Notes: generated by a model from the sequence alone, not told the origin. Numbered from the stretch's first letter, positions 1 to 27,054 are shown. The stretch is DNA of 32,000 nt from Pirellula staleyi DSM 6068 (GCA_000025185.1 CP001848.1:1140001-1172000), one strand, 5' to 3'. Numbers and translations: made by a program.

Positions 1-62
1 GGCATCAATGTCAGCCTTAGTACAGTACGTGGTCGTCATGGCGTCACACTTTCATAGATAGG

Positions 63-116: not shown

Positions 117-155
117 AAAAAAAGGCGCACGAAGCGAGTGATCACTTCGCGCGCC
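117..155 (-). terminator. Rho-independent terminator ending the capsid-like module
   Basis: On the minus strand, GGCGCGCGAAG-(10-nt loop)-CTTCGTGCGCC forms an 11-bp stem with one mismatch (124-155). It is followed directly by a T7 run (117-123), 56 nt after the stop codon at 212-214. Confidence 0.75.
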
Positions 156-211
156 GCATGTGCCGCACAAAAAACTGCACAGCACTATTTGTCGATCGAG
201 TTGAGTCGCGA

Positions 212-1324
212 CTAAGGGGTCACGATCTTGCCGTAGGCGATAGCCGCTGGGGTGTAGAGCGCAGGGATGCCGTTGAACACACCGCACAAATCCCAGCCAC
301 TCGGATCGTGCGTCGCATAGGCATAGGGATAGAAGCCAAACTGTTCTTGCTTGGCACCACCGGGACCTTCCGTCACAATCTCCGACCCTTCGAGATACTG
401 AGCCCAGCGCGGTGATGGTTCAGGAAGGAACGCGGCATAGTCATCTTCGATCAGCTTGACGAACGATTCTTGCGAGCCGTTCCAAACTTCGAGACCGTAG
501 TCCACGATGTGAAACGTCACCCAAGGAATCGCCCGCAAAACAGCCGAAAACTCGCCACTTCCGACACGCTGCATCGATTCAAACACAACGTTGGTCGAAC
601 CACCTTGCGCTTGCACCTTGGTGTTGTTCACCACATGCTGCCAACCAGCGCCGGTGAGCACCACATGCGCGAGTCCCATGCCGGTCAGCTGCACCATCGC
701 GGTGTTAATCAGCTGCAATTGCTTCGGAATATCGGTGCTGGTCGAGCTCCAGCTAGCGCTCAGGATGTCGCCAGCACCGAGCATGTTCAGTCCCGAACGA
801 TTACTCGCAGGAACTTGAAAATCGATCTGCACCTGACCACTCGTGAAGCCATGTCGCAGCTGATCGCCATCGGCGGTGTAGGAGTACGAACCGCGCAGCA
901 TTGCGGCAGTTTGGAACTCCACCAGATTCGCGAAGCGCTGCGCCAGGTAGTACTCTTGCCGTGTGAGATAGCTCTCGCCGCCGAAGTCGAGGTCGTCGGT
1001 CGATTCACCAATCTCGCGGCGGTTGAGCAGGTCTTCATCGAGGAGTGAGATCACTTCTGCAGCGCGGGGAAATGTCGCGGCGACTGTCCCCACTCGCTGA
1101 GGCCGTGTTCGACTTGCCACCTGACCGGGAACACGGCCCGTGGCCACGCTGCGCGTGTGGTTGAAAATGTCGTACGAAAAATGACGCCCCGAGAGACGAC
1201 GAATGTTTCGCCCACCAAGCTTCCATCCAAAAAGCGATTGCAGCGTCGTGCCAGGCAGATCGAGCTGCGAGATGGCCTTGTAGATGGTCTTGGGAGCGAG
1301 GAGCGTAGCTGCTGAGGTACCCAT
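212..1324 (-). CDS. Phage major capsid protein, lambda gpE-like (Phage_cap_E family)
   Basis: The ORF encodes 370 aa, with an ATG preceded by GGAG (cGGAGaagttctcATG). The motif order parallels lambda gpE: RPQRVGTVAATFPRAAEVISLLDEDLL, LVEFQTAAMLRGSYSYT (compare lambda VEEMQAVSAVLKGKYTMT), and the C-terminal THDPSGW...IPALYTPAAIAYGKI. A gpD-like gene lies directly upstream, as in lambda D-E. Confidence 0.7.
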   Translation of the reverse strand: MGTSAATLLAPKTIYKAISQLDLPGTTLQSLFGWKLGGRNIRRLSGRHFSYDIFNHTRSVATGRVPGQVASRTRPQRVGTVAATFPRAAEVISLLDEDLLNRREIGESTDDLDFGGESYLTRQEYYLAQRFANLVEFQTAAMLRGSYSYTADGDQLRHGFTSGQVQIDFQVPASNRSGLNMLGAGDILSASWSSTSTDIPKQLQLINTAMVQLTGMGLAHVVLTGAGWQHVVNNTKVQAQGGSTNVVFESMQRVGSGEFSAVLRAIPWVTFHIVDYGLEVWNGSQESFVKLIEDDYAAFLPEPSPRWAQYLEGSEIVTEGPGGAKQEQFGFYPYAYATHDPSGWDLCGVFNGIPALYTPAAIAYGKIVTP

Positions 1325-1425
1325 GAGAACTTCTCCGAACTTTCTAAACTTCTATTGATGACTTTGTTACAACATTTGATTTCATCGGGCGAGTGCGCAA
1401 GCGAAGTCGCACTCGTCGTTAAGCG

Positions 1426-1445
1426 ACTATTTCCAGGGAAATACG
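1426..1445. promoter_or_regulatory. Site B of the 20-bp palindrome family
   Basis: The sequence is actatttcc-ag-ggaaatacg. Its 17-mer tatttccagggaaatac is identical to the reverse complement of 31552-31568 (site C). It lies in the spacer between the decoration-like and capsid genes. Confidence 0.6.
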
Positions 1446-1465
1446 GCTGTTCTTTGTTCCAGTGA

Positions 1466-2245
1466 CTAGGCGGCAACGGCAGCGGTCGTTCCACCAAGAT
1501 TGGTGACCAGCCACTTCACGTTCACCGAGTCGACGAAGACACCCTCGACCAGCACCTGACTGCCAATCTTGTTTGCTCCAGCGGTAAACGACACTGTCGA
1601 TGCATTCGAGTACCCTCTGTGGATCATGTTCCCGCTGCCGACGATCGTCAGGTCGTTATCGGTCGTTTGAGCGATGCGATAGGCGAGACCATTGGCCGCC
1701 GCTGGCAGCGTGATGGTGGATGCACCAGACATCAAAAAGAGGAGACCAGTTTGTGCACTCGTGAGCGTTTGATTCCCTGCAGCACGAACGACACCACGTG
1801 GGTGCATGAGAACCCCTGGATGCACCTCGAGATTGTCGAACTGAATCCGACCAGCGAGTTGCTGCTTGGCACGCTCGTCGAGGTTCGGCAACTCAGCGGC
1901 ACGCACCAGCCCTTGCACAATCAGCTGCGTGAACCGCTGCGTAGGCTGACCATCGACTTCCATCGGGAGAGGATTCTCGAGAACACCCACGGCAATCTGA
2001 GCACCATCCACTCCGTTCGGCTGATAAGGAACGGCGAAGCCGGTGCTGCTCGAAATGGCCATCACCAGACCACCACGCAGCGTACTGCTGGGAACATTTC
2101 CTTCATCGACCGTATCGTCATCGACGACAACGCCTCGTGTGGCCACAAGGTCGATCCCTTGTCGAGCCGACCAAGTGATCTGACGTTCATCCGACTCAAT
2201 CTTGGGTTGAAATCCGGGGAGATTTCCATTTTTGAAATGCGACAT
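1466..2245 (-). CDS. Head decoration protein-like (lambda gpD-like core) fused to an unassigned C-terminal domain
   Basis: The internal ATG at 2245 gives 259 aa; the track ORF extends to 2392. Residues about 55-137 (GGLVMAISSSTGFAVPYQPNGVDGAQIAVGVLE...LIVQGLVRAAEL...AKQQLAGRIQF) follow the gpD pattern ([27 protein letters not shown]...KSGTFRYEDV...AFAGTAISI). Residues about 140-259 form an extra beta-rich region (TITLPAAANGLAYRIAQTTDNDLTIVGSG...VKWLVTNLGG). Confidence 0.6.
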   Translation of the reverse strand: MSHFKNGNLPGFQPKIESDERQITWSARQGIDLVATRGVVVDDDTVDEGNVPSSTLRGGLVMAISSSTGFAVPYQPNGVDGAQIAVGVLENPLPMEVDGQPTQRFTQLIVQGLVRAAELPNLDERAKQQLAGRIQFDNLEVHPGVLMHPRGVVRAAGNQTLTSAQTGLLFLMSGASTITLPAAANGLAYRIAQTTDNDLTIVGSGNMIHRGYSNASTVSFTAGANKIGSQVLVEGVFVDSVNVKWLVTNLGGTTAAVAA

Positions 2246-2449
2246 GATGTTTCTCTCTTCTACCTGCAAAACATGCTTAAAACACTTGAAATTGGACAAT
2301 ATTGAGAAGCGCCGACCCGCATCGCGACACTTGCGGAGACTGCTGGCCGTGACCTGCGGTGCATGGAGCCAGAGGGTTGTGTCAGTCCACAAAGCGAAGC
2401 GCTCGCGTGTGCGGTTGGCACCGAAGTTCGATCGAAACGAACTCGATTG

Positions 2450-2989
2450 CTACTTGCGACGGAAGCCGGTGCGCTCGAGTTGAGCGCGAGCAATCTGGTC
2501 GGCCTCGTCGTCGGTGAGCTCGTCGCTTGCCACCTTGCCTGAGAAGAATTTCTCGCCGGCATGATGCTCGGGATAATCGAGATCTTCGGTGGAAAGAAGG
2601 AAGGCTCGTGGAACAGCCGAACGCATGGCGCTCAGCGTGGCATCGATCGGCAGCAGCAGTTTGCCACCGGTCGACTCCCCCTGCTCGATCGCGAGGTTTG
2701 CAAGCAATTCGCGCAGGCCCCGAGGTAATGCCTGCTGATGCCGAATCTGATCGGCAGTGCTTGTGCGGAGCGAGCGAAGCTGATCGTGCGAGACTGGCCT
2801 CAGGTGCTCGCTGATCAGGTTGCTCATATCGTGGCCGATGATCGACTCGACTTGCTCGATCACTTCGCGGGCTGTCGGCTCGGCAGTAGATTCGATCGCA
2901 GCTTCGAAAGAACTGGACGGCACCACAACCGTGTCGAGATCGGTCGCGGCGGGATCAACGGGCGCATCAGCGGCGGCGAGCGCTTGCAT
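2450..2989 (-). CDS. Hypothetical acidic protein, first gene of the capsid-like module (scaffold-like role is speculative)
   Basis: The ORF is co-directional with the module. The ATG at 2989 is preceded by AAAGG, and an alternative GTG lies at 3004. The protein is rich in Asp/Glu and predicted helix, with a basic C-terminal tail (ERTGFRRK). I recognise no family. Confidence 0.45.
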   Translation of the reverse strand: MQALAAADAPVDPAATDLDTVVVPSSSFEAAIESTAEPTAREVIEQVESIIGHDMSNLISEHLRPVSHDQLRSLRTSTADQIRHQQALPRGLRELLANLAIEQGESTGGKLLLPIDATLSAMRSAVPRAFLLSTEDLDYPEHHAGEKFFSGKVASDELTDDEADQIARAQLERTGFRRK

Positions 2990-3094
2990 GGCAATACCTT
3001 TCACAAGTGAAGAAACATAACATTCGGGAAGGAGGTGGAAGGAACGAACAGGAGCCAGGTCTTAAGTAGCTCACATCCGTTCACTACATGTACG

Positions 3095-3123
3095 TATATT
3101 CACATGTTTTTGCGCGTCGTCAA
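3095..3123 (-). promoter_or_regulatory. Candidate sigma70-type promoter for the capsid-like module
   Basis: The minus strand reads TTGACG (3123-3118), a 17-nt spacer, then AATATA (3100-3095), about 100 nt upstream of the first gene. It is a pattern match only. Confidence 0.3.
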
Positions 3124-3366
3124 TTCAATGCTGGCAGTCGATTTCGTGGTGTTTGGAGTTGCGCCCCAGGAGAGCGGAGCAACTCAAGCGGGGGACAAGA
3201 GTTATCGATTCGGTGAATTTTTTCGCCCGTTTTTTTCGACTGACACGTCTGGTCCCAATTGCCGCTAGGCTGCTGGCGCTAGGGCGTTTAGAATCTCCCC
3301 AGACGCTTGGAAATACCGTGCATTTCCGCGTGTTTCTTCGCCTGTTTTCACCAGAAAAGCGGTTTT

Positions 3367-4941
3367 ATGTCGCAGCTGATCGCCCGGCTGTTGGTCGTCG
3401 CCGTTGTCATTTGCTCACCATTGGTCGTTGGTCCCATGAACCAAGCAGCCGCCGAAGATAGTCTCGCGATGGCCGTGCAGGCCCTCGCCGATCAGCCGCT
3501 CTACGCGCAAGCTCATTGGGGGATCTTGGCGGTCGATCTCGAGTCGGGCGAAGTGGTGCTCGAGCGCGATAGCGGCAAGCTCTTCGCGCCGGCGTCGGTC
3601 ACCAAGCTGTTCAGCTGCGCAAGTGCGCTCGACTATCTCGGAGCCAGCTATCGCTCGCGCACTCCACTGCTGATGCGTGGCACACTTGCGAGCGACGGCA
3701 CCTTGACCGGTGATCTCATCCTCCGAGCTAGTGGCGATTTTCATCTCGGCAATCGTTTGCGTGAGGATGGAACGATCGACTTCACAAGCAGCGATCACAC
3801 CTATTCAAACTGGGCCAGCGATTCGCGGCTCACGCCTCAAGATCCTCTCACGGGGATCATTCAACTCGCCAAAGCGGCCCGCGCGTTCGGCATTCGTAAA
3901 GTGACCGGGGAAGTGCTGGTCGACGATACGCTGTTCGATCACACCACCAGCAGTGGCAGTGGCCCTGCACAAGTCACTCCTATTTTTGTGAACGACAATG
4001 TGCTCGATCTCACCATCACACCGGCCGCCGCAGGAGAGATGGCCACAATCGAAGCACGACCTGCCACCGCGCTGTTTAAGATCACATCGGAAGTGACTAC
4101 CGGAGCCAGCGACTCGAAGGCCTCGGTACAAGTTTCATGCGACCCGCGTGGCAATGTCGTTGTGAAGGGAACCATTCCGGCAGGTCGAGCACCGCTCCTT
4201 CGCCATGTGGAAGTTCCTAGCCCCGCCGGCTATGCCCGCGCTCTGCTGATCGAAGCCCTTGCTCGCGAAGGAATCGAGCTCGTCGCCAAAATTTCGCTCG
4301 ATCATCCTCAGGCAAAACTGCCGACAGCCGACGATTACCAAAAACTGGCCGCTGTAGGAGAAGTGGTTTCGCCACCTCTTTCGGAGTCGGTGAAGTTGAT
4401 CCTCAAAGTGAGTCACAACTTGCACGCGAGTTCGTTGCCTCTGGTGGTCGCAGCCTCGCAAGGAAAACGAACCGCCGCCGAAGGGATGAAACTCGAAGGG
4501 GAGTTTTTGAAGCGTGCGGGGGTCGATGTCGGCACCATCAGCTTTGGCGGTGGAGCTGGTGGCAGCTCGGCCGATTTTGTCACGCCACGCGCCACGGTTC
4601 AGCTGCTGCAGTACATGGTCAAACGGGACGACGCCAAGGAGTACATCGCCGGGCTGCCGATCCTGGGAGTCGATGGAACTCTGGCGACAGCGATCGATCC
4701 CGAAAGCCCGGCGCGAGGCAAAGTGCAAGGGAAGACTGGCACCCTGGTGTGGGACAACTTGCTCAATGGCGATTCGCTCCTCACTAGCAAAGGCCTAGCG
4801 GGGTACATGACCACCACGAAAGGCCGGCGACTAGCATTCGCGCTGTTCGTCAACGGAGTCCACCTGCGCGACGGCGTGGAAGCGAAGCAAATTGGCATGG
4901 ATCTGGCCCGCATCTGCGAGATGATTCACGCCGCGCGATAG
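3367..4941 (+). CDS. dacB: D-alanyl-D-alanine carboxypeptidase/endopeptidase, PBP4 (peptidase S13)
   Basis: The three PBP motifs are present: SxxK (SVTK), SxN (SHN) and KTG (GKTGT). The ATG at 3367 gives an N-terminal signal peptide (MSQLIARLLVVAVVICSPLVVG...AAAED). The track ORF starts further upstream at a TTG (3307). Confidence 0.85.
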   Translation: MSQLIARLLVVAVVICSPLVVGPMNQAAAEDSLAMAVQALADQPLYAQAHWGILAVDLESGEVVLERDSGKLFAPASVTKLFSCASALDYLGASYRSRTPLLMRGTLASDGTLTGDLILRASGDFHLGNRLREDGTIDFTSSDHTYSNWASDSRLTPQDPLTGIIQLAKAARAFGIRKVTGEVLVDDTLFDHTTSSGSGPAQVTPIFVNDNVLDLTITPAAAGEMATIEARPATALFKITSEVTTGASDSKASVQVSCDPRGNVVVKGTIPAGRAPLLRHVEVPSPAGYARALLIEALAREGIELVAKISLDHPQAKLPTADDYQKLAAVGEVVSPPLSESVKLILKVSHNLHASSLPLVVAASQGKRTAAEGMKLEGEFLKRAGVDVGTISFGGGAGGSSADFVTPRATVQLLQYMVKRDDAKEYIAGLPILGVDGTLATAIDPESPARGKVQGKTGTLVWDNLLNGDSLLTSKGLAGYMTTTKGRRLAFALFVNGVHLRDGVEAKQIGMDLARICEMIHAAR

Positions 4942-25889: not shown

Positions 25890-26453
25890 TCAATCAAAGG
25901 ACCTACTAGTATCGGTCCACTCGTGAGGAATTCTATCAACGGGCATCAAACCCGAACCAGACTCAATCCATTGAGCAGATGACCATTTCCATTCGTTGGC
26001 CCGAGAAACAAGTCCCTTGCGTACAGGGTTAGCGTGAATGTATTGAATCATTTTCATCAACGTTCCCGGCTCAGTGATATTTCTGTCATAACCTCCACCA
26101 CGTTGCCAAAAGTGAGCCTCCTGTTTATTCGAGGAATTGCCTTGTAACTTGGGTATCCAGTGTGGAGCATGCTTGCGAAGGAATGCCAATGCTTTGCGAG
26201 AAACAGGCCACTTGATTTGATGAAGGACTTCTTCAATTTTGTACTGGGACGCTCCAAAGTGAACGATCATGTGGACATGATTGGGCATGAAAACATAGTC
26301 CCAAAGCGACATCCCTAACTTGGATCGTGCGTCGGAGATAGAATCGGCAAGCCATTGACAAACCCTGTCACGCGATAGAAATGCATAGCCTCTATAACAA
26401 CCAAATGTTAGCTCATGAGCATGTCCAGGATCGTTATAAGATTTGCGATGCAT
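25890..26453 (-). CDS. REP-associated tyrosine transposase-like (IS200/Y1 HUH family)
   Basis: The ATG at 26453 gives 187 aa. It has the HUH motif PNHVHMIV and a candidate catalytic Tyr in MIQYIHANPVRKGL. A purine-rich stretch (GAGAAGAAGAAG) lies upstream. Confidence 0.75.
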   Translation of the reverse strand: MHRKSYNDPGHAHELTFGCYRGYAFLSRDRVCQWLADSISDARSKLGMSLWDYVFMPNHVHMIVHFGASQYKIEEVLHQIKWPVSRKALAFLRKHAPHWIPKLQGNSSNKQEAHFWQRGGGYDRNITEPGTLMKMIQYIHANPVRKGLVSRANEWKWSSAQWIESGSGLMPVDRIPHEWTDTSRSFD

Positions 26454-26492
26454 TGATGCTTCTTCTTCTCTAAAGCTGCAGCTTATCCCGTT

Positions 26493-26530
26493 TCGGGGGC
26501 TTCCGCCGACGCGGAGCGCCCCCGCCACCC
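26493..26530. repeat. Right inverted repeat / REP-like hairpin
   Basis: The reverse complement reads gggtggcgggggcgctc + 13 variable nt + gcccccga. Both arms (17 and 8 nt) are identical to the left copy. Confidence 0.7.
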
Positions 26531-26740
26531 ATCGCAGAGTAAGAACGCGCTATTCGGTTCCACAATTCTTCCCACAGTGGTGCTTCTGGGTGCACTGCTG
26601 GCTTGCCCAGCGTTGCGCAGTTCTATAAAGTCAAAGCTCTGTTGAGTTATGCCAAGCACAGATACCCCAAGGTTCGCGGCATAGATCGTTAGACAAAGTA
26701 CTCTTGAGTACTACAGGAAAAATAGGCGGACTGATCAATA

Positions 26741-26938
26741 ATGTCGAAAATTTACACTTGGAAAATCGTACTTGCTGGGCTTTTGGGAATTGCAATCGGA
26801 CTCGACTGGACGATTGGCAACTTCAAAGCGAACCATCAATACTTCATGGCACCCGTCGGCAAATGGCAGGGACCAGTAGTCTTATTGCTGGGGCTTGTGG
26901 CGCTCACTATTGGCGTGCGAATCCTAAGAGCCCGCTGA
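26741..26938 (+). CDS. Small two-TM membrane protein (65 aa), hypothetical
   Basis: It has an ATG start and two hydrophobic helices (IVLAGLLGIAIGL and VVLLLGLVALTIGV). It is an open frame inside AT-rich sequence, where stop codons are frequent. There is no clear RBS. Confidence 0.35.
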   Translation: MSKIYTWKIVLAGLLGIAIGLDWTIGNFKANHQYFMAPVGKWQGPVVLLLGLVALTIGVRILRAR

Positions 26939-27054
26939 CATATGCCAATCTCGCAGGGATGGCAGTACAAGATGGCCCAGCAGTGGGAAGTTCCGTCATC
27001 TGCGCCGCTGGACAATAGTTGAACTACGAAGCAATCAATCTTCTGCGCACTTGG

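Follow-up and report, generated by a model that had tools for sequence, protein, structure and literature searches.

We analysed a 32,000-nucleotide stretch of the Pirellula staleyi DSM 6068 chromosome (CP001848.1:1140001-1172000, hereafter the window) whose left end carries three minus-strand genes of phage type, encoding an acidic protein, a decoration protein and a major capsid protein (MCP). These are the first three genes of a five-gene phage head cassette, in which they are followed by genes for a gp36-type head–tail adaptor and a Mu-type portal, so that the full order is acidic protein, gpD-type spike, gpE-type MCP, adaptor and portal. Comparison across genomes indicates that the five head genes are inherited vertically in the Pirellulaceae beside the housekeeping gene for PBP4 and are under purifying selection, that they co-evolve with a packaging module lying at a second locus in P. 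staleyi, and that the cassette descends from a lineage of uncultured phages. We assign a probability of roughly 0.6 to the reading that the two loci form an anciently domesticated head-and-packaging system that resembles a gene transfer agent (GTA) and is either tail-less or tail-borrowing. A host-maintained system that makes DNA-filled heads would be the most economical account of this gene set.

Open reading frames (ORFs) of 370, 259 and 179 aa were recovered for the three genes listed by the first-pass annotation, a reading of the window made from its sequence; their coordinates (Table 1) give the 204- and 141-bp spacers that it had noted, and the GC content of the module (0.556-0.577) is, as it had estimated, like that of the flanks. 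The 370-aa protein is an MCP of the lambda gpE class, as judged by family profiles: it matched positions 38-328 of the 329-position PF03864 Phage_cap_E profile (E 7.1e-11; 42.2 bits, cut-off 22.9) as well as phrog_29, ‘major head protein’ (E 1e-10). Its sequence is identical to Psta_0913 (ADB15598.1) of P. staleyi DSM 6068, and the 259-aa protein likewise has a 100% identical counterpart in P. staleyi. Its AlphaFold model, built from an 18-sequence alignment, was of low confidence (mean pLDDT 49); at E <=1e-3, Foldseek matched this low-confidence model to gpE-class capsids only (Chi, YSD1, lambda and a CFT073 prophage), with TM-scores of ~0.35. The N-terminal half of the 259-aa protein scored 26.7 bits against PF02924 (lambda gpD), just under the cut-off of 29.1, and the protein matched phrog_3583, ‘head decoration’ (E 7.6e-8); its homologues are all 257-261 aa long and most carry a precomputed PF02924 match. 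The lambda D–E order that had been proposed, decoration protein and then MCP, agrees with these D- and E-type Pfam matches, of which the D-type one is below its cut-off. AlphaFold modelled the gpD-like half poorly and predicted a C-terminal beta-sandwich (residues ~148-259, pLDDT 80-89). The best PDB match by Foldseek was the capsid spike of Pseudomonas phage Pa223 (9ny6_C, E 2.9e-5); in BFVD, a set of viral predicted structures, the matches of the 259-aa protein were distal domains of tail fibres. We take it for a decoration protein that would hold a possible binding domain outward from the surface of the capsid.

The acidic protein had no Pfam or PHROG match. Its N-terminal half is variable, acidic and rich in Ala, Pro and Glu, and only the C-terminal ~90 aa are kept across loci, at 26-40% identity, with the pattern LPxGLRxxL...HPxGExFF...LSDxQAEQIA. 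This C-terminal domain gave a weak profile match (E 2e-4, with a common HPxGGxF motif) to the C-terminal part of a 452-aa protein which, on the phage-like contig L035 (L numbers are our handles for loci and contigs), occupies the same position upstream of the gpD fusion as the acidic gene does in the cassette. The pairing of the two proteins resembles the relation between lambda C and Nu3, and by this analogy the acidic protein is a scaffold-like candidate. A GTG at 3004 offers its gene an alternative start and a 184-aa product.

The adaptor gene begins inside the window. Its 13 in-window codons, MTTTYCTKADIDA, agree with the start of the adaptor gene of L001, and the family is identified by PF07030 (3.3e-11) and phrog_195, ‘head-tail adaptor’ (3e-12). 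The adaptor and portal left of the window were read on contigs that encode an identical capsid protein, such as L001; on these contigs the leftward order is adaptor, portal, a small ORF and then housekeeping genes, and a Portal_Mu gene follows the adaptor on every contig that carries the cassette locus. The first-pass annotation had described an orphan three-gene module without packaging genes, a picture produced by the edge of the window: the adaptor starts at position 39, the portal lies just beyond the left edge and the P. staleyi genome also encodes a full-length large terminase (ADB15344.1). That annotation had further supposed that portal, terminase, tail and integrase genes to the left of position 1 would make the locus an ordinary prophage. 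The portal and adaptor were indeed there, and no terminase, tail or integrase gene was found within 10 kb leftward, so the locus is still not an ordinary prophage.

The gene order acidic protein, gpD-like protein, MCP, gp36-like adaptor and portal recurs in ~30 loci, drawn from 23 species-representative genomes and metagenome contigs and including a complete Anatilimnocola chromosome. At least 11 of them, scattered over the entire capsid tree, have PBP4 as their neighbour on the upstream side, and the position next to PBP4 is therefore ancestral. Homologues of the MCP fall into more than 120 clusters, whose representatives share 66-84% identity with it and are 368-373 aa long throughout; those with names belong to Pirellulaceae or Planctomycetales. 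The nearest full-length relatives outside this clade are 47-48% identical (1.84 billion 50%-identity representatives searched), and the chromosomal clade itself collapses to about one 50%-identity cluster; in the capsid tree the chromosomal copies form one tight clade, separated by a long branch from phage relatives. A tblastn search with the MCP against 50,697 GenBank phages returned no match.

Coding changes in the cassette are constrained. The capsid genes of the window and of L001, a closely related metagenome-assembled genome, differ by 15 synonymous and 0 non-synonymous changes. In unsaturated pairs, the ratio of non-synonymous to synonymous divergence (dN/dS) was 0.07-0.19 for MCP, spike and portal, while the adaptor gave 0.14-0.23 and the acidic gene 0.15-0.27 (0.15-0.39 overall); inside the clade of the window it was 0.078 for MCP, 0.095 for gp36, 0.061 for the portal and 0.12 for gpD. 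Divergence in dN followed that of the housekeeping neighbour, with Mantel r of 0.93 for MCP and PBP4 (slope 0.49) and 0.94 for portal and PBP4 and with a median dN of 0.254 for MCP against 0.383 for PBP4; capsid divergence tracks PBP4 at about half its rate. Selection, host-paced divergence and the narrow clade together describe a selected gene set that moves at the pace of its host, unlike a decaying prophage or a circulating phage.

The packaging module consists of a small protein, g92, whose gene is divergent from the others, a helix-turn-helix (HTH) protein, an 86-aa protein (g86), a ParB-like protein (phrog_620, 4e-11), an ABC-like P-loop ATPase fused to a GNAT acetyltransferase (ATPase–GNAT; phrog_11143, E 2e-97) and the large terminase, TerL (phrog_979, 1e-55), which is 57% identical to the TerL of the phage-like contig L035. 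It lies next to the head cassette in many loci. One subclade has it immediately behind the portal, Anatilimnocola and L038 have it in inverted orientation on the far side of PBP4, and in L050 it stands directly upstream, in phage-like order. Elsewhere it stands alone among housekeeping genes (L042, L043, L047, L049 and L123), and on one 2.35-Mb contig it is 81 kb from the head cassette. In P. staleyi DSM 6068, TerL (ADB15344.1) is full length at 498 aa and is separated from the capsid gene (ADB15598.1) by ~254 genes, counted as 254 accession numbers. This TerL is 99.4% identical to that of L135, and the sample that yielded L135 also holds a contig with 98.8% identity to the window. On L135 the packaging module is complete, with housekeeping genes on its flanks, and it stands here for the surroundings of the P. 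staleyi module. Mantel r for dN was 0.70 between MCP and TerL and 0.84 between MCP and ATPase–GNAT, and by this measure the head cassette co-evolves with the packaging module. Within 10 kb of either module, no annotated locus carries an integrase, replication or lysogeny-control gene.

Several features recur within and beside the packaging module. The ATPase–GNAT gene always lies just upstream of TerL and after the ParB-like gene (L037 18247-19344, L135 8339-9478), and its product may replace or assist a small terminase. In every copy g92 is divergent from the module (minus strand at L037 16367-16645 and L135 6557-6844); it is conserved at 55-67% identity, has no family match and is a possible regulator. 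A MerR-TPR gene adjoins g92 in L135 (5445-6347, plus strand) and in L038 (5832-6737, minus strand), with 54% identity between the two, and in L038 it sits between g92 and PBP4. Its presence beside g92 in both suggests an ancestral divergent layout, with a break in the lineage of P. staleyi that fell between MerR-TPR and PBP4; the gene thus marks the rearrangement by which the two modules were parted there.

Uncultured phage relatives of the cassette were found in IMG/VR and on metagenome contigs (L035/L045, L130, L131/L133, L125-L129 and L069). They share with the chromosomal system the gpD fusion, MCP (28-52% identity), adaptor (36-37%), portal (37-42%) and TerL (35-57%), as well as the relative order MCP, adaptor, portal, and are far more divergent among themselves than the chromosomal copies are; they differ in having an extra 6-7 kb block of eight genes, a portal fusion of 1103-1161 aa, RusA and a small-terminase-like protein. 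On the large viral contigs (L130, L131/L133 and L125-L129) the eight unannotated genes of the block stand between adaptor and portal, so a portal placed after the adaptor is the ancestral order in these uncultured phages. Part of the block persists behind the adaptor in three long forms on chromosomes, L007, L050 and L028 (Blastopirellula), and their genes between adaptor and portal are homologous to the L130/L131 block; L007 has PBP4 as its neighbour, and the GC content of its block equals that of the flanks. The portal directly follows the adaptor in the form found in the window and in most others, in which the block has thus been lost. This series of gene orders and homologies places the origin of the cassette in the uncultured phage lineage. 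The block genes may be neck or tail parts, in which case the common form of the cassette would be a tail-deleted derivative.

The block occupies 11841-15473 in L007 (products of 223, 176 and 566 aa), 16164-16733 in L050 and 1509-3377 in L028. No PHROG annotation was obtained for the L130 block or the L069 ORFs; a tblastn search of GenBank phages was uninformative for the 631-aa block protein of L130 and gave accessory-domain matches only for its portal fusion; and profile searches against PDB sequences found no match for MCP, the gpD fusion, the portal, the acidic protein or three families of the phage block. In the portal fusion of the phage relatives (L130 9791-13102), a portal-like N-terminal part is joined to a segment like a 2′-5′ RNA ligase and to a C-terminal phrog_23460 region. 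A relation of the module portal to the 686-aa or the 474-aa ORF of the phage contig L069 was considered and rejected, profile comparison having given no relation.

We propose that the two loci together would build DNA-filled capsids. The MCP would assemble on a portal ring with the help of the acidic, scaffold-like protein, and the terminase would package DNA, with the ParB-like, HTH and ATPase–GNAT proteins in a DNA-recognition role. The gpD-type spikes would make the expanded shell more stable and present a beta-sandwich domain on its outside that could bind surfaces, and the adaptor would either close the portal or provide a docking site for a tail. Such a particle would work like a GTA, tail-less or with tails that are encoded elsewhere or come from an infecting phage. 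The parts list covers head assembly (shell, candidate scaffold, spike and portal), head completion (the adaptor) and DNA packaging (the terminase and its candidate partners in DNA recognition), and nothing else.

Relative dosage of the head proteins may be set by a hairpin. The terminator that the first-pass annotation had placed at 117-155 is present, with a 14-bp stem, 9 G–C pairs and a T7 tail, and the whole MCP-distal spacer folds with z = -4.4 relative to shuffles. The annotation had ended the module there; the adaptor start codon at position 39 lies beyond the hairpin, which makes the terminator internal to the cassette, with the capsid gene on one side and the adaptor and portal genes on the other. 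Most of 21 loci have a strong GC-rich hairpin directly behind the stop codon of the capsid gene, without conservation of its sequence, and a T-run stands behind it only in window/L001 and L017. The post-capsid hairpin is probably an attenuator that sets a high ratio of capsid to adaptor and portal: it would lower read-through, so that adaptor and portal would be made in small amounts.

The system shares with GTAs its chromosomal, vertically inherited structural genes, purifying selection (dN/dS 0.06-0.27) and the absence of integrase, replication and lysogeny-control genes; genes for a complete particle, with a tail and a lysis or release function, were found at neither locus. Several points weigh against a domesticated, GTA-like system. 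We found no paper describing the locus. Neither locus, flanks included, showed a recognisable tail, holin or endolysin gene in the form found in the window, which leaves release and delivery unexplained, and we recognised neither a prohead protease nor a clear small terminase. Confidence is low in the models of the MCP and of the gpD-like N-terminal half; dS is saturated in most pairs, so that many dN/dS values are only upper bounds; and the Mantel statistics cover only 8-11 related genomes. Some lineages, moreover, tolerate loss of function (L027, L121, L031/L134 and L016): broken copies in several lineages mean that the system is dispensable at least sometimes.

Among the alternatives, an intact prophage was rejected, there being no integrase, att sites, lysis cassette or tail operon in the window or in the 10 kb to its left and no tRNA in the window. 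Under tail piracy, the system would be a fixed descendant, or a functional likeness, of a capsid-forming satellite, and its own DNA-filled heads would join the tails of an infecting related phage through gp36; it would thereby spread host DNA and drain the tail supply of the phage. Its genes correspond to the hijacking half of phage-inducible chromosomal islands of the capsid-forming kind (cf-PICIs), namely capsid, portal, adaptor and TerL without tail or holin (PMC10085698). Metagenome phages with homologous MCP, adaptor and portal exist (L035, L130 and L131), and the adaptor is under selection although no tail gene lies nearby. We nevertheless regard tail piracy as unlikely, given that no locus has an integrase, an AlpA-type regulator or a primase-replicase within 10 kb, that the position beside PBP4 is ancestral and the genes there co-diverge with PBP4, and that no helper phage is known for these bacteria; with modules up to 81 kb or ~254 genes apart, the element is also unable to package itself in one piece. 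It is common for cryptic prophage genes to be kept for excluding related phages, and such phages occur here in the same kinds of samples. Head and packaging proteins retained for disturbing phage assembly, by mixed capsids, portal poisoning or DNA cutting and not for making a particle, would likewise show purifying selection without tail or lysis genes. One or two proteins usually suffice for interference, however, whereas at least ten genes in two modules co-evolve here with full length and order kept, and the MCP is conserved over its whole length (~70% identity, uniform size), as expected of a shell that must still assemble. Nothing points directly to defence, although no search of a defence-system library was made; an anti-phage function of this kind strikes us as quite improbable.

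Both remaining alternatives were raised by the first-pass annotation. Its suggestion of a remnant with intact ORFs survives as history, in that the cassette is clearly a reduced prophage whose long forms (L007, L050 and L028) retain further genes of phage origin that the form in the window lacks, and disruptions do occur in several lineages. As a statement about the present, a functionless cryptic remnant, with ORFs intact by chance or through recent deletion, is very improbable: ~30 loci keep intact genes although the neighbouring PBP4 is down to 52-56% identity, dN/dS is 0.06-0.2 with the clade of the window included, the MCP evolves more slowly than PBP4, and the separately located P. staleyi TerL stays full length, all at odds with neutral decay. 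An encapsulin-like nanocompartment, a closed capsid-protein shell holding enzymes and not DNA, could account for a conserved, chromosomal, tail-less gene for a shell protein of the HK97-fold family. It is scarcely credible for a capsid gene conserved and co-evolving with portal, head–tail adaptor and terminase, parts that serve DNA packaging through a unique vertex; no conserved cargo-enzyme gene stands beside the capsid gene, and the MCP matches the phage gpE family and not an encapsulin family. The best fit among the possibilities offered at first is the head locus of a dispersed GTA-like system, its TerL module lying elsewhere in the same genome, and vertical inheritance, selection and the terminase module at a second locus bear out the view that this is not a conventional prophage head operon. 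More tentatively, the Pirellulaceae might possess a two-locus system, not described before, that makes DNA-filled heads but encodes no tail and is of one of two kinds, a tail-less GTA in which spikes or borrowed tails deliver or a host-owned ‘tail thief’ that makes infecting phages carry host DNA, although we think it doubtful.

The GTA-like reading can be set beside systems already described. RcGTA of Rhodobacter capsulatus has at least 24 genes in five loci (PMC5026251), a precedent for a domesticated particle encoded at several loci. Like the Pirellulaceae system, it consists of phage-derived structural and packaging genes that are chromosomal, vertically inherited, under purifying selection and located at more than one locus, and both are free of integrase and replication genes. 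RcGTA carries head spikes, which the predicted fold of the 259-aa protein would match with a capsid-surface spike. It differs in having its own tail, tail fibres, lysis functions and demonstrated activity, whereas no tail or lysis gene was found at either Pirellulaceae locus. The ancestry differs as well, with a gpE/gpD-type head, a Mu-type portal and adaptor, and ParB-like and ATPase–GNAT terminase partners in the system described here, and so does the host phylum, here Planctomycetota.

Likeness to cf-PICIs extends to capsid, portal, head–tail adaptor and large terminase, to the absence of tail and holin, and to the predicted tail-less, DNA-filled head. The cf-PICIs are, in contrast, mobile islands of contiguous ~10-15 kb, reported mostly from Proteobacteria and Firmicutes, with an integrase, a regulator and a primase-replicase. 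The Pirellulaceae system forms no contiguous mobile island and has no integrase-regulator-primase module at one end; it is fixed beside PBP4, co-diverges with its host and is split in several genomes, and the MerR-TPR neighbour of the packaging module is not part of any such integrase-regulator-primase module. The cassette shares with lambda Nu3-D-E a gene in the scaffold position, a decoration protein and an MCP of the gpE family. In lambda, portal and protease precede Nu3-D-E and head-completion genes and a full tail operon follow, whereas in the Pirellulaceae cassette the portal comes after the adaptor (as in L130 and L131), the decoration protein has an extra C-terminal spike domain and no protease was found.

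We found no report of a GTA for Planctomycetes/Planctomycetota, and to our knowledge GTAs are known from only a handful of lineages. If the system is a GTA, a vertically inherited, selected head-and-packaging system in Planctomycetes would add an independent domestication event. Living genomes would then show stages of that domestication, from phage relatives through chromosomal long forms to short forms and a moving terminase module. The absence of tail genes at the loci poses a puzzle: what a host would gain from a capsid without a tail, and how it would release and deliver one. Cultures of P. staleyi and Anatilimnocola exist, which makes the system testable.

Table 1 Features of the head cassette and its surroundings (positions in the window unless a contig is named)
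Feature	Position	Strand	Remarks
Acidic protein gene, 179 aa	2450..2989	minus	first gene of head cassette
Decoration / capsid-spike gene, 259 aa	1466..2245	minus	gpD-like N-terminal half and C-terminal beta-sandwich
Major capsid protein (MCP) gene, 370 aa	212..1324	minus	Psta_0913 / ADB15598.1
Intrinsic-terminator-like hairpin between MCP and adaptor genes	117..155	minus	stem 155-124, T-run 123-117
Mu-gp36-like head–tail adaptor gene (164 aa), first 13 codons in window	1..39	minus	ATG at position 39
Mu-type portal gene, 381 aa	L001 11829-12974		PF06074 4.4e-13; phrog_113 6.9e-17
Divergent intergenic region between acidic gene and PBP4	2990..3306		candidate promoter read by eye on minus strand

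Disrupted copies take several forms. In L027 (10001-16760) a 5.6-kb element of low GC content, which carries a serine-recombinase-like gene, interrupts the capsid gene near residue 272; this locus also lacks the adaptor gene, and its TerL and ATPase–GNAT genes are broken; by its sequence, L027 is a decaying copy. The portal is frameshifted in L016. In two independent lineages, L121 and L031/L134, the portal is split at the same place (residue ~214-215, inside the conserved YIGDIFWYP codons) by elements that carry a large serine recombinase, one of ~5 kb with a GC content of 0.45 (L121 12514-17560) and one of ~24 kb (L031/L134); L031 ~3322 and L134 8415-10001 belong to the same 27.9-kb contig. 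Both portal halves are intact, and those of L121 share 84-89% identity with the window lineage. Such elements may favour the portal gene as an attachment site, or the interruption may be reversible; recurrent serine-recombinase insertions at one portal codon in two lineages are perhaps a gene-interruption phenomenon in their own right. Behind the portal, several loci have a small conserved ORF (core ~67 aa, ‘...CTLSEANAW...’) (L001 12986-13321, L037 13088-13291), and in L012 it adjoins a GGDEF gene 6.6 kb from the portal.

Upstream of the cassette, the divergent PBP4 gene (Peptidase_S13) reported by the first-pass annotation was found at 3307-4941. The promoter that it had credited to the module fared less well, a consensus scan giving no sigma-70-like site upstream of the acidic gene. 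A weak candidate read by eye on the minus strand (TTGACG at 3123-3118, a 17-nt spacer and AATATA at 3100-3095) fails that scan. Two palindromic ACATGT hexamers (3107-3102 and 3091-3086, minus strand), 16 bp apart, flank the candidate -10 and may form an operator. A k-mer search of the upstream regions of the head and packaging modules found no common motif, with a weak TTGACA-like word in a minority of loci.

As had been reported, the remaining ~29 kb of the window are without phage genes: ordinary chromosomal genes and one IS200-like transposase were found there, and no integrase, tail or lysis gene. The window also yielded no tRNA and no Rfam match. The IS200-like (Y1_Tnp) transposase ORF lies at 25890-26528, at the edge of the sole GC dip in the window (0.489, 26001-27000).

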